IMG/VR virus record: IMGVR_UViG_3300046832_001910
Location: 53,612 to 117,611 of that record
Length of the DNA stretch: 64,000 bases
Strand: one strand, 5' to 3'
DNA from: a virus
This document shows, piece by piece, positions 41,260 through 53,788 of this stretch; position 1 is the first letter of the stretch, and each line of letters begins with the position of its first letter. The notes below the pieces were generated by a model. It worked only from the letters and a program-made list of their open reading frames with translations, did not search any database and had not been told where the DNA came from. The position numbers and the translations under genes are program-made.

Positions 41260-41844
41260 ATGATCAAATTTAATAAAGTAATTTCTGACAATCCAGCACA
41301 TTGGTATTGGTTTGATGAAGGATTTTCTAATGATGAGATTGCCAGAATAGAAAGAATGTCAACTGCATTTAATTTAGGCAAGGCTCAGATTAGTGATGAT
41401 GAATTAATTAATGAAGACATTAGAAAGAGTGAAACTGGGTGGATCCCATTTACCGATGAGTACCGTTGGATATATGAAAAATTAGCCGGAATGATACAGG
41501 AAGCCAATGATGTTCTTTGGCACTTTGATTTAGGCGAAATGGAGGAAATGATCCAGTATACCATCTATTATGAAGATGGCGGCCATTATGATTATCACCT
41601 CGATGTTGGCCCAGGTTATCCTCTTAATCAGAGAAAAATTAGCATTACGGTTCAATTAACAGGACCTGACGATTATGAAGGCGGAGACTTTGAAATCTTA
41701 AGAGGAGGCAGTCCAGAATCTCTACCAAAGAAAAAAGGCTGTGTTTTGGTATTTCCTTCATACATTTTGCATAGAGTAAAGCCAGTTACTAAAGGAACAA
41801 GAAAATCTCTTGTTTTGTGGGTAGGTGGTGGGAGTTATAAGTGA
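41260..41844 (+). CDS. PKHD/prolyl-4-hydroxylase-like 2OG-Fe(II) oxygenase
   Basis: HLD, YEGG, FPS..HRVKPVTKGTRKSLVLW. Confidence 0.88.
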   Translation: MIKFNKVISDNPAHWYWFDEGFSNDEIARIERMSTAFNLGKAQISDDELINEDIRKSETGWIPFTDEYRWIYEKLAGMIQEANDVLWHFDLGEMEEMIQYTIYYEDGGHYDYHLDVGPGYPLNQRKISITVQLTGPDDYEGGDFEILRGGSPESLPKKKGCVLVFPSYILHRVKPVTKGTRKSLVLWVGGGSYK

Positions 41845-42859: not shown

Positions 42860-43476
42860 TTGATAACCTAGAACTTATTAAGCCTCTCCTTAACTTTGAA
42901 AAGAAGGGAGACTTTTATATGCTTTATGTTTTTAAGCGTAAGAAGGATCAACCTGAAGGAGAAAGAGATAATCATCAATCAGTAAGAACCATTAAGACTT
43001 ATTGCATTGAGAGTGTTGAACACTTAGAACGAAGATATGATGAGATTAAACAACTATGTGAAATGTTTAATGCACGGGCATACATCCATGTCCAAAAACA
43101 AAATCACTTTGACGTTTCTCTAAATATGATGGTTGCGTTGGCTCAACGTATCCAAGATGGTAACACCAATCAAAAGGGTTTATTTGACTCTGTTGTTGGG
43201 CAGATTAAAACCCAAGAGAAACGGTGGATTGTAGATATTGACACCAAGGATGAGATCGTGGTTCATCGAGTTGCTCATATTGTTAATCAAATGAAACCTG
43301 AAGGTGATAAGATTATTACATGCATCCCAACCAAAAATGGCTATCATTTAATTACTCATAGATTTGATGTATTAACTTTTAATAAGATGATGTCACTTCA
43401 GGGAGATGTTCCTGACATTCAAAAGAAAAATCCTACATTGTTATATTTACCTAATACTCTTTCAAATGATATATGA
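42856..43476 (+). CDS. protein with primase/AEP-like motifs
   Basis: WIVDID and PTKNGYHL. Confidence 0.5.
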   Translation: MIDNLELIKPLLNFEKKGDFYMLYVFKRKKDQPEGERDNHQSVRTIKTYCIESVEHLERRYDEIKQLCEMFNARAYIHVQKQNHFDVSLNMMVALAQRIQDGNTNQKGLFDSVVGQIKTQEKRWIVDIDTKDEIVVHRVAHIVNQMKPEGDKIITCIPTKNGYHLITHRFDVLTFNKMMSLQGDVPDIQKKNPTLLYLPNTLSNDI

Positions 43477-43670: not shown

Positions 43671-43735
43671 TTGTTAATAACTTTTTTCATTCAATAGAGA
43701 AAAAAGTCCTAGAAAAATTTTCAAATCCCAATTAT
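43671..43735 (+). repeat. early repeat, truncated copy B
   Basis: Matches up to TCCCAATTAT, then lacks the TTTG/TAAATTTA box and AAACGGA. Confidence 0.8.
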
Positions 43736-43863: not shown

Positions 43864-44676
43864 ATGCTATTAAAACAAGGTTCGACCGGTGCAGACGTAA
43901 TAAAATTACAACAAGCACTAGGTCTTAAAGCAGATGGAATCTTTGGTCCAGGCACAGATAAAGCCGTTAAAGTTTTTCAATCAAAGAACGGTTTAACTCC
44001 AGATGGAGTTGTTGGCGATGGTACTTGGTCTAAGCTATTTCCTTCTACAAGTGCACCAGTTCAGAATACTGGTTCTCTTAATCTATCAAAACTTTCTGGT
44101 GTCATTCCAGCATCTGTACTCGCTCAGATCCCTGATACTGCTGCTAAATTCGGAATCACTACTAATCTCCGTTTAGCTCATTTCCTAGCACAATGTGGCC
44201 ATGAATCTGGTGGATTTAAAGCCGTTTCGGAAAATCTAAATTATTCTGTTCAAGGATTAGGATCAATTTTCAAAAAGTATTTTCCTACTGTAGAGTTAGC
44301 TAACGCTTATGCTCGAAATCCAGAGAAAATTGCTTCTCGTGTTTATGCAAGTCGTATGGGTAATGGTGATGAAGCTTCAAAAGAAGGATTCAAATTCCGT
44401 GGAAGAGGTTACATTCAATTAACAGGAAAATCAAACTATACGAATTTCACGAAGTTCATCGGTGAAGATTGTGTAGCAAATCCAGATTTGGTTGCAACTA
44501 AATATCCACTTGCTTCTGCAGCTTTCTTCTTCAATTCAAATAACCTTTGGGCTATCTGTGATAGAGGTGCTGATGATGCAACTGTTACTGCTGTAACTAA
44601 AAGAGTGAACGGTGGAACTATCGGTCTTGCTGATAGAATTAAACACTTTAAAGAGTATATTGCTCTGCTAAAATAA
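43864..44676 (+). CDS. endolysin: PG-binding domain + GH19 lysozyme-fold domain
   Basis: DGIFGPGT..FQ..DGVVG; HFLAQCGHES, FRGRGYIQLTG, VNGG..GLADR. Confidence 0.92.
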   Translation: MLLKQGSTGADVIKLQQALGLKADGIFGPGTDKAVKVFQSKNGLTPDGVVGDGTWSKLFPSTSAPVQNTGSLNLSKLSGVIPASVLAQIPDTAAKFGITTNLRLAHFLAQCGHESGGFKAVSENLNYSVQGLGSIFKKYFPTVELANAYARNPEKIASRVYASRMGNGDEASKEGFKFRGRGYIQLTGKSNYTNFTKFIGEDCVANPDLVATKYPLASAAFFFNSNNLWAICDRGADDATVTAVTKRVNGGTIGLADRIKHFKEYIALLK

Positions 44677-44686
44677 TTTATTCAAA

Positions 44687-45796
44687 TTGAAGAATTTACC
44701 TAAAGAAGAATTAGTAAGTAGACTCGAAGCAATAAACAGAAGTAATGCTATCATTTACTTTGATCTTAATGGAACTATACTAGGAGTTAATGATATTTTC
44801 TTAGAAGCGATGGGATATGGGAAAGGTAACCATGACGATCTTATCGGTAAACATCACCGCATTTTCGTATGTGAAGACTATGCAAGAACTCTTGAATATG
44901 AGAAGTTTTGGGATATCCTGAGAAGTGGTAAGTATTACACTGGAGAATTTGAGAGAAGAAAAAAAGACGGAAGTCTTATTAATCTTCAAGCAACTTACAA
45001 TCCTATTTTCGATGATGAAGGTAAAATTACCAAGATAATGAAAATTGCTACTGATATTACATTAATCGTCGAAAGTAAAAAACAGATAGATGCTATTAAT
45101 AGAAGCACTGCTCTTATCAATTTCAATATTGATGGATTCATAACTGATGTTAATTCGATATTCTTAGAAGTTATGGGCTATAAACCTAGTGAAAAAAATA
45201 AAGTCGTAGGTAAACATCATAGTGTCTTTGTAAGTTATGAGTATTCTAAATCTGATGAGTATGTCAAGTTTTGGGATAATCTAAGAAAAGGAAAGTATTT
45301 CGATGGTATATTTGAAAGGAAAAAAGTAGATGGCTCTACTGTCTACTTACAAGCATCTTACAATCCAGTATTAGACAGTAAAGGGAATATTACGGATGTG
45401 GTTAAAATTGCAACTGATGTTACTGAAGCTGTAAATAATAAGACAAAAATAGAAGCTCTTACTAAAGATTTACAAATAGAGCTGACAAATTCTCAAAAAC
45501 TAAAAGCAGCAATAGAGATAGAAAAAGATGCTGCTTTAAATGACTTGGATGTAATGATGAAGAAGAGTCAATCTGAATTAATTAAAGTAATTGTGAAGGT
45601 TGCACTTTCCGTTATTATTGGAGTAGGTGCCGTGACTACAATATTGTACTGGATGGCTATGGTCACAGGAAAAGACACACAAATCATTGGATCTACTTGG
45701 TCGAATATGTTTAGTGTTCTTCTCACTAACGCATTTTCTATAGTAGGTACGATTATGGGTATCAAATATGCTACTCAAGACGGAAAACCTCAATAA
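44687..45796 (+). CDS. tandem PAS/PAC protein with coiled coil and two C-terminal TMs
   Basis: Two copies of AINRS..F..G.I..VN..FL..MGY..GKHH..FW..LR.GKY..FER..DGS..QA.YNP..KIATD; TTG start. Confidence 0.88.
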   Translation: MKNLPKEELVSRLEAINRSNAIIYFDLNGTILGVNDIFLEAMGYGKGNHDDLIGKHHRIFVCEDYARTLEYEKFWDILRSGKYYTGEFERRKKDGSLINLQATYNPIFDDEGKITKIMKIATDITLIVESKKQIDAINRSTALINFNIDGFITDVNSIFLEVMGYKPSEKNKVVGKHHSVFVSYEYSKSDEYVKFWDNLRKGKYFDGIFERKKVDGSTVYLQASYNPVLDSKGNITDVVKIATDVTEAVNNKTKIEALTKDLQIELTNSQKLKAAIEIEKDAALNDLDVMMKKSQSELIKVIVKVALSVIIGVGAVTTILYWMAMVTGKDTQIIGSTWSNMFSVLLTNAFSIVGTIMGIKYATQDGKPQ

Positions 45797-45812
45797 AAAT
45801 AACAAATAAAAA

Positions 45813-46103
45813 ATGAAAAACACAGAAAAGAAAACAGTATCTTTCATCAGAAGAATGTTTATGGATGATAACGACATAAATGAAAAATCCGTAGTTGGAT
45901 TTGCTTCATTTATTATGATGGTTATTTGTTTAGCCGTAGATATCTGGACCGGTTTCCACGGACAACAAATGCCAATCAATGAATTTATATTCGACGGATT
46001 TATGGTTATCACACTAGGTTCGTTTGGTATTGCTTCCGTAGATAAGTACATAACTACGAGAAAAGGATCTAATAACGATAGCGAAAATACAACTATCGAA
46101 TAA
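45813..46103 (+). CDS. holin-like 2-TM protein
   Basis: 96 aa, two TMs, charged tail, lysis context. Confidence 0.55.
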   Translation: MKNTEKKTVSFIRRMFMDDNDINEKSVVGFASFIMMVICLAVDIWTGFHGQQMPINEFIFDGFMVITLGSFGIASVDKYITTRKGSNNDSENTTIE

Positions 46104-46117
46104 AATAAAGTTACATT

Positions 46118-46711
46118 ATGAGTTGTTATACTAGAGAACAAATAGAAGCCGCTGTAAAAGCTAAAGGATATGCTTGGTTTGAAGGCGCAAAAGATTTCGA
46201 TGTTAATATCGTAGGAGTTAGAAACTCTGCAACTGGACAAAAAGTTACAAACGCCTTTGATGATTGTCTTACCATATCTTATAAAGAAGGTGGTGTTTGG
46301 AAGTCTCATTGCTGGATGGCTACTACAGACCCTGGTAAAAAGGGAATGTTAGAAGGTAAAGCCGCTGGTGGAGTTGCAAGACTTGTAGAAGGTCAATACA
46401 GAGGATCTCATACACTAGGTTTACATCAAGGAAAATATGAAGCTCTTAAACAAGCTAAACCAGTTAAAGTTTATAGAGATGGTGACAGAGACCTAGAATA
46501 TGACGAAAATAAAATAGCAGAAGGAGTATTTGGAATTAACATTCATAAGGCTGGAGTAGATTCTACTTTTGTAGAAAACTGGTCAGAAGGATGTCAGGTA
46601 TTTAAGAGAGCTAAAGATTTCGAAGAATTCATGGCAATCTGTAGAAAAGCTGCTGCAATACATGGTAATTTTTTCACATATACTCTAATCGAATCATCTG
46701 ATATTAAATAA
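46118..46711 (+). CDS. putative peptidoglycan peptidase (YkuD-like)
   Basis: GINIH..WSEGCQV resembles the L,D-transpeptidase His..SxGC motif. Confidence 0.55.
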   Translation: MSCYTREQIEAAVKAKGYAWFEGAKDFDVNIVGVRNSATGQKVTNAFDDCLTISYKEGGVWKSHCWMATTDPGKKGMLEGKAAGGVARLVEGQYRGSHTLGLHQGKYEALKQAKPVKVYRDGDRDLEYDENKIAEGVFGINIHKAGVDSTFVENWSEGCQVFKRAKDFEEFMAICRKAAAIHGNFFTYTLIESSDIK

Positions 46712-46767: not shown

Positions 46768-46769
46768 TA

Positions 46770-46800
46770 AAGCCAGGAATTCGCTACTCCTGGCTTTTGT
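46770..46800 (+). terminator. intrinsic terminator
   Basis: AAGCCAGGA-ATTCGCTAC-TCCTGGCTT then TTGT. Confidence 0.75.
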
Positions 46801-46811
46801 GCGTAGAAAAA

Positions 46812-46899
46812 TTGTTAATAACTTTTCTAAAAAAAGTCTCTTAAAAATTTTTTTATCCCAAAAATTTGTTTTATATTTATATAAAATTAAACGGATATG
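46812..46899 (+). repeat. early repeat, copy C
   Basis: Full motif ending AAACGGATATG. Confidence 0.85.
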
Positions 46900-47064
46900 G
46901 AATTTAACAATCGTCAAGAAATCATCAAAGCCCTAGTTAAAGAATTTGGGGAAACTGAATCGTCATTCAGCAATACTGCCACTAATAAGCAACGAGAAAA
47001 ATTTTGGACTTTCAACCGCTTATCTAACTATTTAAGAAACCTAAGAATTGCTAACGAAAAATAA
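46897..47064 (+). CDS. 55-aa early protein (not in ORF track)
   Basis: Hand translation MEFNNRQEII..RIANEK. Confidence 0.65.
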   Translation: MEFNNRQEIIKALVKEFGETESSFSNTATNKQREKFWTFNRLSNYLRNLRIANEK

Positions 47065-47068
47065 TCAT

Positions 47069-47245
47069 ATGAAACTTATCAAAAAAATAGAGATCTATTT
47101 AACTGAAGCAGGATTAACTCAACAGGACTATGTAATATCTCTTCAAGGTCCTACTTTAATTTTTACGCAAGGCGGTAAGGAAAAATTTGACAATGATCCT
47201 ATTCTTAGAGCGGAACTCTTTGATCTAGGAATCTCTATCCTGTAA
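47069..47245 (+). CDS. hypothetical protein
   Basis: ATG 47069. Confidence 0.6.
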   Translation: MKLIKKIEIYLTEAGLTQQDYVISLQGPTLIFTQGGKEKFDNDPILRAELFDLGISIL

Positions 47246-53559: not shown

Positions 53560-53788
53560 CGAATTTAATATTAAGTGGAAAGACTATCTAGAAGAAGGAC
53601 ACTATGGTTTAGCCATTAATGATCCTTCATTTACTGAATGGTTAGATGGTAAGTTTCAGGAATTTACTAAAAGACCAGGATTTTCTTATAGCCAAATTAA
53701 ATCAAAATTTGGTATGGGAAGATTTTATTGTGAAGGTCTTAGCACAGAAGAACAATTAGAAGTTGAAGACAAAATATCAAAAATATGA
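53549..53788 (+). CDS. hypothetical protein
   Basis: QIKSKFG..RFY. Confidence 0.65.
   Translation: MTSNEFNIKWKDYLEEGHYGLAINDPSFTEWLDGKFQEFTKRPGFSYSQIKSKFGMGRFYCEGLSTEEQLEVEDKISKI

Follow-up and report, generated by a model that had tools for sequence, protein, structure and literature searches.

A tandem-PAS protein with a conserved membrane hairpin in a phage lysis cassette: a candidate signal-gated modulator of lysis timing

The 64-kb stretch of viral DNA analysed here (hereafter the window; positions 53,612 to 117,611 of IMG/VR record IMGVR_UViG_3300046832_001910) carries a lysis cassette in which a gene at 44687 to 45796 encodes two PAS domains, a long helix and a membrane hairpin. This gene stands between those for an endolysin and a 96-amino-acid two-transmembrane protein (tm96), and a gene for a YkuD-fold wall enzyme closes the row. 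The C-terminal coiled coil and two-helix hairpin of the protein constitute a module that we define here as MOD, and the protein is accordingly called PAS-MOD. On comparative sequence evidence, we consider it probable that PAS-MOD is a one-component, signal-gated, accessory membrane effector that modulates the timing of lysis. The same comparisons show the MOD hairpin to be a signalling output, one that phages have retained within their lysis regions. The window is the final 64 kb of a 117,611-base record with a CheckV completeness of 38%, and its G+C content is about 34%.

The PAS-MOD protein and the MOD family

PAS-MOD (369 amino acids, + strand, TTG start) matches Pfam PAS_3 at 4.3e-25 with two stretches and TIGR00229 at 4.9e-28, and has no PHROG match. 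An AlphaFold2 model built from a 34-row alignment (mean predicted local distance difference test [pLDDT] score, 78.2) contains two five-stranded PAS folds. PAS-A (44747 to 45055, + strand) covers residues 21 to 123, with a Pfam PAS_3 stretch at 33 to 120 and a D-I-T motif at 123, and PAS-B (45110 to 45418, + strand) covers residues 142 to 244, with a Pfam PAS_4 stretch at 142 to 249 and a D-V-T motif at 244; D-(I/V)-T is the usual junction between a PAS domain and the signalling helix in PAS kinases. A cytoplasmic coiled coil or signalling helix (residues 246 to 297; 45422 to 45577, + strand) continues unbroken into the first transmembrane segment (TM1) of the MOD hairpin (residues 298 to 362; 45578 to 45772, + strand), which consists of TM1, a short conserved loop, a near-invariant TM2 and a short charged tail. 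The model renders this region as a single helix from 246 to 327, a four-residue turn and a second helix at 332 to 362. The hydropathy profile peaks at residues 298 to 316 and 341 to 359, and the C terminus is reached 7 to 10 residues past TM2.

Because no signal peptide was found and lysines stand before TM1 and after TM2, both ends of PAS-MOD are predicted to be cytoplasmic, with only about 8 to 12 residues facing outward. A spanin was excluded as a candidate, since the large domains lie N-terminal to the helices and the lack of a signal peptide places them in the cytoplasm. The preliminary description of this sequence had read the gene as PAS-PAS-coiled coil-TM-TM, with none of the chemoreceptor, kinase or GGDEF outputs to which such PAS pairs are normally coupled. 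Two PAS stretches in both Pfam and the model, one helix and two hydropathy peaks agree with that reading; no such output was found, and the protein ends in the hairpin. Pfam and NCBIfam return no MCPsignal domain, despite the JGI name "methyl-accepting chemotaxis protein."

A search of 1.84 billion representative proteins with residues 250 to 369 returned 94 proteins at E ≤ 0.001, of which 70 reached E ≤ 1e-10. All but two of the 94 (92) are shorter than 360 amino acids, with the match at the C terminus. The standard form of the family is about 200 amino acids long and comprises a family-specific N-domain of about 70 residues followed by the coiled coil (alignment A1); it belongs to no Pfam family and has a weak match to phrog_1544 (unknown function; best, 3e-5). 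Other N-domains include a GAF domain in protein P0132 (Pfam, 2.5e-17) and a single PAS domain in protein P0134 (1.5e-10). TM2 is near-invariant across all forms, including those with unrelated N-domains (alignments A1, A3 and A5), and PAS-MOD has both hallmarks of the family, a C-terminal coiled coil and a hairpin with the near-invariant TM2 columns. The existence of the module without PAS domains excluded a truncated Aer. The preliminary description had seen the only output as a holin-sized two-TM segment; a two-TM hairpin it is, but one that proves to be a specific, conserved, phage-only module and not a generic segment.

A degenerate pattern derived from A1 gave at least 599 matches in IMG/VR, 595 of which were confirmed. 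Applied to one genome for each of 185,579 species, the same pattern gave eight confirmed loci, all on contigs of metagenome-assembled genomes (MAGs) from scattered phyla. Six MAG contigs were tested and all six carry phage-family genes, among them genes for T4-type topoisomerase II subunits, a virion protein, a baseplate protein and an endolysin. We conclude that the MOD family is restricted to phages. Against cultured-phage records (release August 2025), neither tblastn with a standard MOD protein nor megablast with the cassette gave a match, and tblastn with PAS-MOD matched three records through its PAS part only. ESM Atlas held no usable match for residues 250 to 369.

The best of those three records, MT836939.1 (8.2 kb, "Bacteriophage sp.," UNVERIFIED), is G+C-rich and, by its open reading frames (ORFs), looks bacterial rather than phage-derived. 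By eye, it encodes a resolvase-like fragment, a long, GGDEF/EAL-like membrane protein and a 675-amino-acid PAS-PAS protein with a chemoreceptor-like tail. The best PAS match outside the family is a 675-amino-acid PAS-PAS protein at 43.7% identity.

Genomic context, linker register and constraint

To survey the surroundings of MOD genes, 80 loci were fetched by PAS-MOD (82 to 89% identical), 80 by the standard form and 153 by the GAF and single-PAS forms. ORFs were called and clustered, cluster representatives were named with Pfam and PHROGs, and local hidden Markov models (HMMs) made from the named clusters were scored against all loci. The resulting 311 MOD ORFs reduce to 205 unique genes, for which context was counted in flanks of 4 to 5 kb with a small HMM set. 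A recurring order was seen in the standard-form loci, namely a histidine kinase with two TM segments and a PAS domain (HATPase_c, 4.4e-15; PAS_3, 7.1e-10), a receiver-only regulator of about 145 amino acids (Response_reg, 2e-8, above the cut-off) and the MOD gene; among these 80 loci, the kinase was found in 73, the regulator in 73 and MOD in 79.

Counted over unique genes, the 136 standard MOD forms have a regulator within three genes upstream in 126 cases and a kinase in 123, with a wall hydrolase in the flank in 80 and any lysis-type gene in 92. None of the 59 PAS-PAS forms has a regulator or a kinase, while 53 have a wall hydrolase and 57 any lysis-type gene. Regulator and kinase are likewise absent from the single or partial PAS forms (n = 6; wall hydrolase in 6, any lysis-type gene in 6) and the GAF-type forms (n = 3; 2 and 3). 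The one other short form (n = 1) has a regulator, a kinase and a wall hydrolase. Fused sensors and the kinase/regulator pair are thus mutually exclusive (0 of 68 versus 126 of 136), as is expected if both signal to the same output. The fused sensor of the PAS-PAS form found in the window appears to take the place of kinase and regulator. No receiver domain and no kinase were found in the 117.6-kb record, whose sole HATPase_c match lies in a GyrB/topoisomerase II-like gene (625 amino acids; G000:C1:50233-52110) just ahead of the window.

Some loci hold further sensory genes. Two histidine kinases precede regulator and MOD in L165, L185, L212, L214 and L388; one of the paired kinases begins with a signal-peptide-like stretch, and its outer segment is long. 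The sensor domains of the kinases differ, being GAF, flavin-type PAS or the PAS type of the window, and several inputs may converge on one MOD output. In two of the 80 standard-form loci (L119:3423-4004 and L134:3415-3993), a microbial rhodopsin gene of 192 to 193 codons sits between the receiver-only regulator, which is accompanied by a two-TM gene, and the MOD gene. Both rhodopsins match Pfam Bac_rhodopsin above the cut-off (1.2e-13 and 3.8e-12), and the retinal-lysine region was seen by eye. The presence of a phage-encoded rhodopsin within this sensor/lysis cluster hints that light or energy may be an input; a search of the literature turned up no unambiguous account of rhodopsins in phages.

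Spacing between sensor and hairpin is also regular. In 136 unique standard forms, the linker, taken as the residues that separate the N-domain profile from the module profile, is 15, 22, 29, 36, 43, 50 or 57 residues long in 134 (3, 30, 39, 5, 5, 15 and 37 proteins, respectively) and 68 residues long in 2. Seven length classes that share one remainder modulo 7 are the mark of a register-locked coiled coil, here predicted from linker lengths and not from heptad scoring; a simple hydrophobic heptad count over residues 246 to 299 of PAS-MOD gave no clear single register. The outlying length, 57 + 11 = 68, is also one that a coiled coil can accommodate. Register-keeping coiled coils are typical of signalling helices in kinases and chemoreceptors.

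Selection on PAS-MOD is strongly purifying. The ratio of nonsynonymous to synonymous substitution rates (dN/dS, Nei-Gojobori; 295 usable of 300 sampled pairs) is 0.071 for the whole gene at a dS of about 0.87. By part, it is 0.070 for the PAS region, 0.113 for the coil and 0.053 for the hairpin; the coil is the least conserved part (identity, 0.76 to 0.78) and the hairpin the most constrained (0.90 to 0.91). A PAS pair of the soluble PAS-PAS chemoreceptor type with no Pfam-recognised output domain could be taken for what is left of a chemoreceptor or kinase captured from a host, now decaying and without a function of its own. We find this scarcely credible in view of the low dN/dS at that divergence, the uniformity of the 120 listed relatives (362 to 375 amino acids, 84 to 100% identical), among which frequent frameshifts or truncations were not seen, and the existence of the C-terminal module apart from PAS in a large phage family.

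The distribution of constraint within the protein also bears on whether the hairpin is a mere membrane anchor, with the PAS pair and coiled coil acting on another protein such as the cytoplasmic face of a holin. The predicted topology does place all large domains in the cytoplasm, Aer likewise uses its membrane hairpin mainly as an anchor, and T4 RIII acts at the cytoplasmic face of the holin. Even so, the anchor explanation appears improbable: no other part of the protein is as constrained as the hairpin, TM2 is near-invariant across forms with unrelated N-domains, and the heptad-locked linker points to a fixed rotation between sensor and hairpin that an anchor would not need. 

How widely the module is held was assessed in 80 loci picked solely by an endolysin 69 to 78% identical to that of the window. 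MOD lay within 6 kb in six of these, four being standard forms with kinase and regulator and two PAS-MOD; the other 74 were without MOD, and many of them keep tm96, the YkuD-fold gene and the endolysin together. MOD is thus an optional insertion into a conserved lysis core. Many relatives of the window also carry a Phage_holin_4_1 gene. The accessory status of MOD, taken with these holin genes, therefore makes it more likely a regulator than the sole holin and argues against an essential hole-former.

The preliminary description had proposed that homologues with PAS domains and two TM segments be sought next to endolysins, and such linkage was found: 57 of the 59 unique PAS-PAS forms lie beside lysis genes, in shuffled order. 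Over all forms, a wall hydrolase, a tm96-family gene or a Phage_holin_4_1-type gene is present in the flank of 159 of the 205 unique MOD genes. In the standard-form loci, a second trio stands on one side or the other of kinase, regulator and MOD and consists of an 82-amino-acid tm96 homologue, an endolysin (peptidoglycan [PG]-binding plus Amidase_2, Peptidase_M15_3 or the 197-amino-acid YkuD-fold family) and a Phage_holin_4_1-like gene scoring just under the Pfam cut-off. Neighbours of PAS-MOD in the lineage of the window are the tm96 family, Phage_lysozyme (3.6e-43), Peptidase_M15_3 (2.4e-21), GH19, fusions of PG-binding and YkuD-fold domains, a lipoprotein-like gene, and Phage_holin_4_1 genes above the cut-off (27.9 and 35 bits).

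A signal-gated membrane effector of this kind could have a target other than lysis, such as superinfection exclusion, host energy or ion balance, or host motility, an explanation that we rate as rather unlikely. Neither the mutual exclusion nor the heptad linker says anything about the target, MOD occurs in only 6 of the 80 endolysin-picked loci, and 46 of the 205 unique MOD genes have no recognised lysis gene in the flank, a count that is an upper bound on the real exceptions because the HMM set was small and the flanks were 4 to 5 kb. Motility would suit the resemblance of the receiver-only regulator to CheY-type proteins, the chemoreceptor type of the PAS pair, the JGI label, and the tail of the 675-amino-acid best match, in which we recognised by eye what is presumably a chemoreceptor signalling motif; the rhodopsin gene within the cluster in 2 of 80 loci also fits a non-lysis target. 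Yet MOD stays beside lysis genes although their order and type change, in 57 of 59 PAS-PAS forms and in 159 of 205 forms overall, whereas chance alone would place a gene within 5 kb of a wall hydrolase in about 1 of 10 cases by a rough estimate that was not computed and that assumes a phage of 100 to 300 kb with one to three wall hydrolases. In the window, moreover, the gene starts 10 nucleotides after that for the endolysin and stops 16 before that for tm96, inside a single unit bounded by a repeated box and a terminator (see below). 

A module tree suggests that a sensor was joined to MOD on two or three separate occasions. The tree was inferred by quick maximum likelihood from the last 100 residues (109 rows, 102 columns), with Shimodaira-Hasegawa-like approximate likelihood ratio test (SH-aLRT) support and midpoint rooting. 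All PAS-PAS rows and four single or partial PAS rows form one clade (support, 98) nested among standard forms, two GAF rows form a separate clade (support, 98), and the single-PAS protein P0134 falls beside a standard form (support, 83).

Input, proposed action and known systems

The solved structures closest in sequence are flavin PAS domains without exception, namely MmoS (3ewk, 2e-10), Aer (8dik, 3e-6), NifL and a LOV domain. Foldseek with the PAS-MOD model retrieved tandem-PAS structures, first MmoS (5.9e-16) and then DosP, NifL and FixL; the fold does not decide the cofactor, because flavin, haem and ligand-free tandem PAS proteins are returned alike. The flavin pocket of Aer is lined by H53, N85 and R115, equivalent to H132, N164 and R195 of MmoS (PMC9668731). 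Alignments of PAS-A with MmoS and of PAS-B with Aer show that both PAS domains of the window keep the pocket His and that Asn is replaced by Arg and Arg by Ala in both, leaving one of the three residues of an Aer/MmoS-type flavin adenine dinucleotide (FAD) pocket. All three are kept by P0134 (MmoS, 1.4e-23), so that a redox-type flavin PAS is well supported, on sequence grounds, in another member of the MOD family. The PAS pair may sense O2 or redox state through haem or FAD, as proposed earlier; its nearest solved relatives are flavin PAS domains, but two of the three flavin-pocket residues are replaced.

We propose that PAS-MOD assembles through its coiled coil into a dimer or a larger oligomer. 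A change at the sensor, whether a ligand, a cofactor state or, for the standard N-domain, the docking of a phosphorylated regulator, would travel along the helix and alter the packing of the hairpins. The hairpins might then depolarise the membrane through a small lesion and so trigger the true holin, much as a pinholin would, or they might bind and hold a holin, for example the neighbouring 96-amino-acid protein, in the manner of an antiholin. Either way, PAS-MOD would be an accessory input to the lysis timer and not the essential hole-former. A predicted complex between hairpin residues 279 to 369 (A3) and the 96-amino-acid protein (A2) scored 0.00, against a mark of 0.32, in a run without controls, from which we conclude nothing.

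A broader proposition, which we put forward only tentatively, is that the signal systems of these large aquatic phages act at the protein level on the hairpin and that the burst is timed to the redox state, energy or light conditions of the host. The hairpin could then be a sensor-gated pinhole or holin clamp driven through the heptad-locked coiled coil. Its inputs could be exchangeable, comprising PAS-PAS, Aer/MmoS-type flavin PAS, GAF, a kinase with a receiver-only regulator and, in two loci, rhodopsin.

Several points weigh against a role in lysis timing and should be set beside the evidence above. Residues 250 to 369 match no Pfam, PHROG or NCBIfam family and no described holin or antiholin family. 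The layout of PAS-MOD fits that of a class II holin or pinholin (two TM segments, a short charged C-terminal tail and a gene in a lysis cassette), but its size of 369 amino acids and its conservation, far stronger than that of its neighbours, are unlike those of small, fast-evolving holins. Across the same pairs of loci, the median identity is 0.88 for PAS-MOD versus 0.40 for tm96 (PAS-MOD higher in 325 of 333) and 0.83 for the YkuD-fold domain (PAS-MOD higher in 140 of 156), figures inflated for PAS-MOD because the loci were picked by similarity to it, a bias that the same-pair design removes in part. The linkage to lysis genes could reflect a general clustering of membrane genes, and the 46 unique MOD genes with no recognised lysis gene nearby count on the same side. 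Because the record is about 38% complete, its missing part could hold a holin, kinase or regulator. The replaced pocket residues and the quick, midpoint-rooted construction of the module tree belong here as well, and RNA-library contigs that cover the cassette (see below) do not prove its transcription, of which they are a weak hint.

The closest known system in function is the lysis inhibition of T-even phages, with holin T, the periplasmic antiholin RI and the cytoplasmic antiholin RIII (PMC11413866, PMC8385771), and of vibriophage ICP1 (PMC7182436). There too, a phage accessory protein encoded near the lysis genes takes up a signal and shifts the time at which the holin fires, as we propose for PAS-MOD. 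RI and RIII differ in being small, in having no PAS or GAF domain and in responding to superinfection sensed in the periplasm. The input to MOD, by contrast, would be a cytoplasmic PAS or GAF domain or a kinase/regulator pair, and its output a hairpin on a heptad-locked coiled coil; no sequence relation between MOD and the T-even antiholins was found.

Class II holins and pinholins, such as S68 of phage 21, resemble PAS-MOD in having two TM segments, ends predicted to lie inside, a charged C-terminal tail and a place in the lysis cassette. Read by eye, TM2 of MOD also has the continuous small, hydroxylated face of a pinholin, with Ser/Gly-Thr-Ser-Thr at i, i+4 and a G-x-x-x-G motif. PAS-MOD is unlike pinholins in its 369 amino acids, of which about 297 residues are cytoplasmic and precede the hairpin, in being better conserved than holins usually are, in being accessory and in matching no holin family; its relatives carry Phage_holin_4_1 in addition.

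Among sensors, Aer, the energy-taxis receptor of Escherichia coli, consists of an FAD-binding PAS domain, a membrane hairpin, a HAMP domain and a chemoreceptor signalling domain (PMC9668731, PMC13232288). Aer and PAS-MOD share a cytoplasmic PAS domain, distantly related between the two, carried on a two-helix hairpin whose outer loop is very short. The hairpin of Aer is followed by HAMP and a kinase-control domain, whereas PAS-MOD ends shortly past TM2, and the flavin contacts N85 and R115 of Aer are Arg and Ala in the PAS pair of the window. BdlA and McpS of Pseudomonas aeruginosa are soluble PAS-PAS chemoreceptors for which FAD is predicted by motif in all PAS domains (PMC8694187). They share the tandem PAS pair with PAS-MOD but have a chemoreceptor output and no membrane segment.

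Sensing has been tied to lysis or to holin-like proteins in other ways. The staphylococcal LytSR system controls the holin-like and antiholin-like Cid/Lrg proteins, and the PAS-domain receptor VqmA of phage VP882 launches lysis. Both resemble the MOD systems in linking two-component or PAS sensing to holin-like proteins or the lysis decision; unlike MOD, both act via transcription, and LytSR is host encoded. The fusion of the MOD sensor to a membrane protein, or its encoding beside one, suggests direct control at the protein level. Within the literature covered, which lies mostly outside subscription journals and includes passages of PMC7824862 and PMC7029224, we found no description of a PAS- or GAF-fused lysis protein or of a kinase/regulator pair in a phage lysis region.

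The lysis unit, its other genes and its occurrence

As the preliminary description had it, the cassette is made up of four tightly spaced genes at 43864 to 46711 and closed by a terminator. The four ORFs are all on the + strand, with successive gaps of 10, 16 and 14 nucleotides. The first (43864 to 44676) encodes an endolysin of 270 amino acids with an N-terminal PG_binding_1 domain (Pfam, 2.8e-13) and a GH19 catalytic domain (Glyco_hydro_19, 9.3e-10; 39.1 bits versus a cut-off of 25.5) and matches the endolysin family phrog_181 at 2.3e-71, in line with its earlier assignment as a GH19 endolysin.

The tm96 gene (45813 to 46103, + strand), earlier called a two-TM holin-like gene, encodes a protein of 96 amino acids that does have two hydropathy peaks (residues 22 to 40 and 58 to 76). 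It has no match to a Pfam, PHROG or NCBIfam family; Phage_holin_4_1 (PF05105) in particular matches neither tm96 nor, at E ≤ 1, anything else in the record of the window. Homologues of tm96 lie within two genes of PAS-MOD in 43 places, and tm96 matches all 29 of 29 members of the 82-amino-acid family from the standard-form loci (best, 5.2e-23). The tm96 family (60 related genes, alignment A2) has near-invariant Asn, Glu, Asp, Thr and Gly residues in or before TM1 and adjoins endolysins in loci with and without MOD, and it is a candidate new holin family.

The last gene (46118 to 46711, + strand), for which a YkuD-like wall peptidase had been suggested, encodes 197 amino acids. No Pfam family was found at E ≤ 0.1, the YkuD profile included, and no NCBIfam family, and Foldseek with the structure model (pLDDT, 86.9) gave no match at E ≤ 0.001. 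Alignment of the model by VIA-align to L,D-carboxypeptidases and L,D-transpeptidases of the YkuD fold gave Z scores of 9.2 to 5.7 (Pgp2, 9.2, with a root mean square deviation of 3.9 over 128 residues; Bd1075, 8.9; Csd6, 8.8; DpaA, 8.3; YkuD, 7.8 to 7.9), and His143 and Cys159 are invariant in 18 relatives; these two results uphold the suggestion. The protein also matches phrog_3000 (1.7e-38) and the C-terminal part of phrog_33083, a lysozyme-containing "endolysin" (9.2e-12). An N-terminal peptidoglycan-binding extension is present on 10 of the 18 relatives, the domain occurs alone too, and the family fills the endolysin slot in other loci. The enzyme is probably a second endolysin that acts on the peptide stems of peptidoglycan. 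Its domain looks like a catalytic domain not described before in endolysins, probably with L,D-carboxypeptidase or L,D-endopeptidase activity. Two gene families outside Pfam thus emerge beside MOD, this YkuD-fold endolysin domain and the conserved two-TM lysis-region protein.

The 5′ edge of the unit is marked by a copy of a 12-nucleotide box at 43671 to 43682 (+ strand), 193 nucleotides upstream of the endolysin start. At its 3′ end, a hairpin with a U-rich 3′ side at about 46769 to 46801 (+ strand; 10-bp stem, 9-nucleotide loop, −16.2 kcal/mol, z = −3.27, with 2 of 200 shuffles folding equally well) is a likely intrinsic terminator; a simple promoter/terminator scan called 0 terminators, missing this hairpin, and fewer promoter-like sites than in shuffled sequence. 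A further copy of the box at 46812 to 46823 (+ strand) starts the following unit. The exact box occurs eight times in the window versus 1.37 expected (41875, 43671, 46812, 47247, 59788, 60350, 60611 and 62242), always intergenic and on the + strand, and the surrounding 50 to 60 nucleotides are also repeated, for example at 46812 and 47247. From this distribution, the box may serve as a promoter or operator element, and it is probably the signature of one class of phage promoters. As the lysis unit owns one such box, transcript data could reveal its timing class. Two units upstream of the cassette, a gene at 41260 to 41844 encodes a 2OG-Fe(II) oxygenase (PF13640, 7.2e-14).

The cassette recurs in lake water. 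At least 95% of its sampled sequence words are held by 17 lake-water DNA runs; a flag marks 15 of these as possible origins of the DNA. Small word shares in runs X19 to X23 carry no weight here as evidence of habitat. Contigs from 2017 RNA libraries of lake or fresh water (four runs under four study codes, possibly one campaign) lie on parts of the cassette at 95 to 100% identity. The endolysin/PAS-MOD junction is bridged in X18 (record 2) and X20 (record 14), and the junction of PAS-MOD with the 96-amino-acid gene in X18 (record 5) and X19 (record 12). The contigs leave 43000 to 43450 and 46775 to 47076 uncovered, which proves nothing. At position 45808, in the spacer between PAS-MOD and the 96-amino-acid gene, the contigs of two of these runs (X18 and X19) are one base shorter, probably a strain variant.

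Lysis timing sets phage fitness and burst size, and to our knowledge the only well-studied case of signal-dependent lysis timing is the superinfection lysis inhibition of T-even phages and ICP1. In a large and abundant group of aquatic phages, as yet uncultured, signals from inside the host cell appear to reach the lysis machinery from PAS or GAF domains or a kinase/regulator pair via a dedicated, strongly conserved membrane module. If so, the module would offer a testable system for the control of a membrane lesion by a cytoplasmic sensor, a natural, modular sensor-to-lysis switch of possible use in synthetic biology, and a route by which the physiology of the host or the cycle of day and night might influence viral lysis in lakes and seas. 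Should the more tentative proposition of protein-level timing to host redox, energy or light also hold, lysis control through MOD would form a class of its own, new to biology, and no one- or two-component system would have been known before to target the lysis apparatus of a phage.

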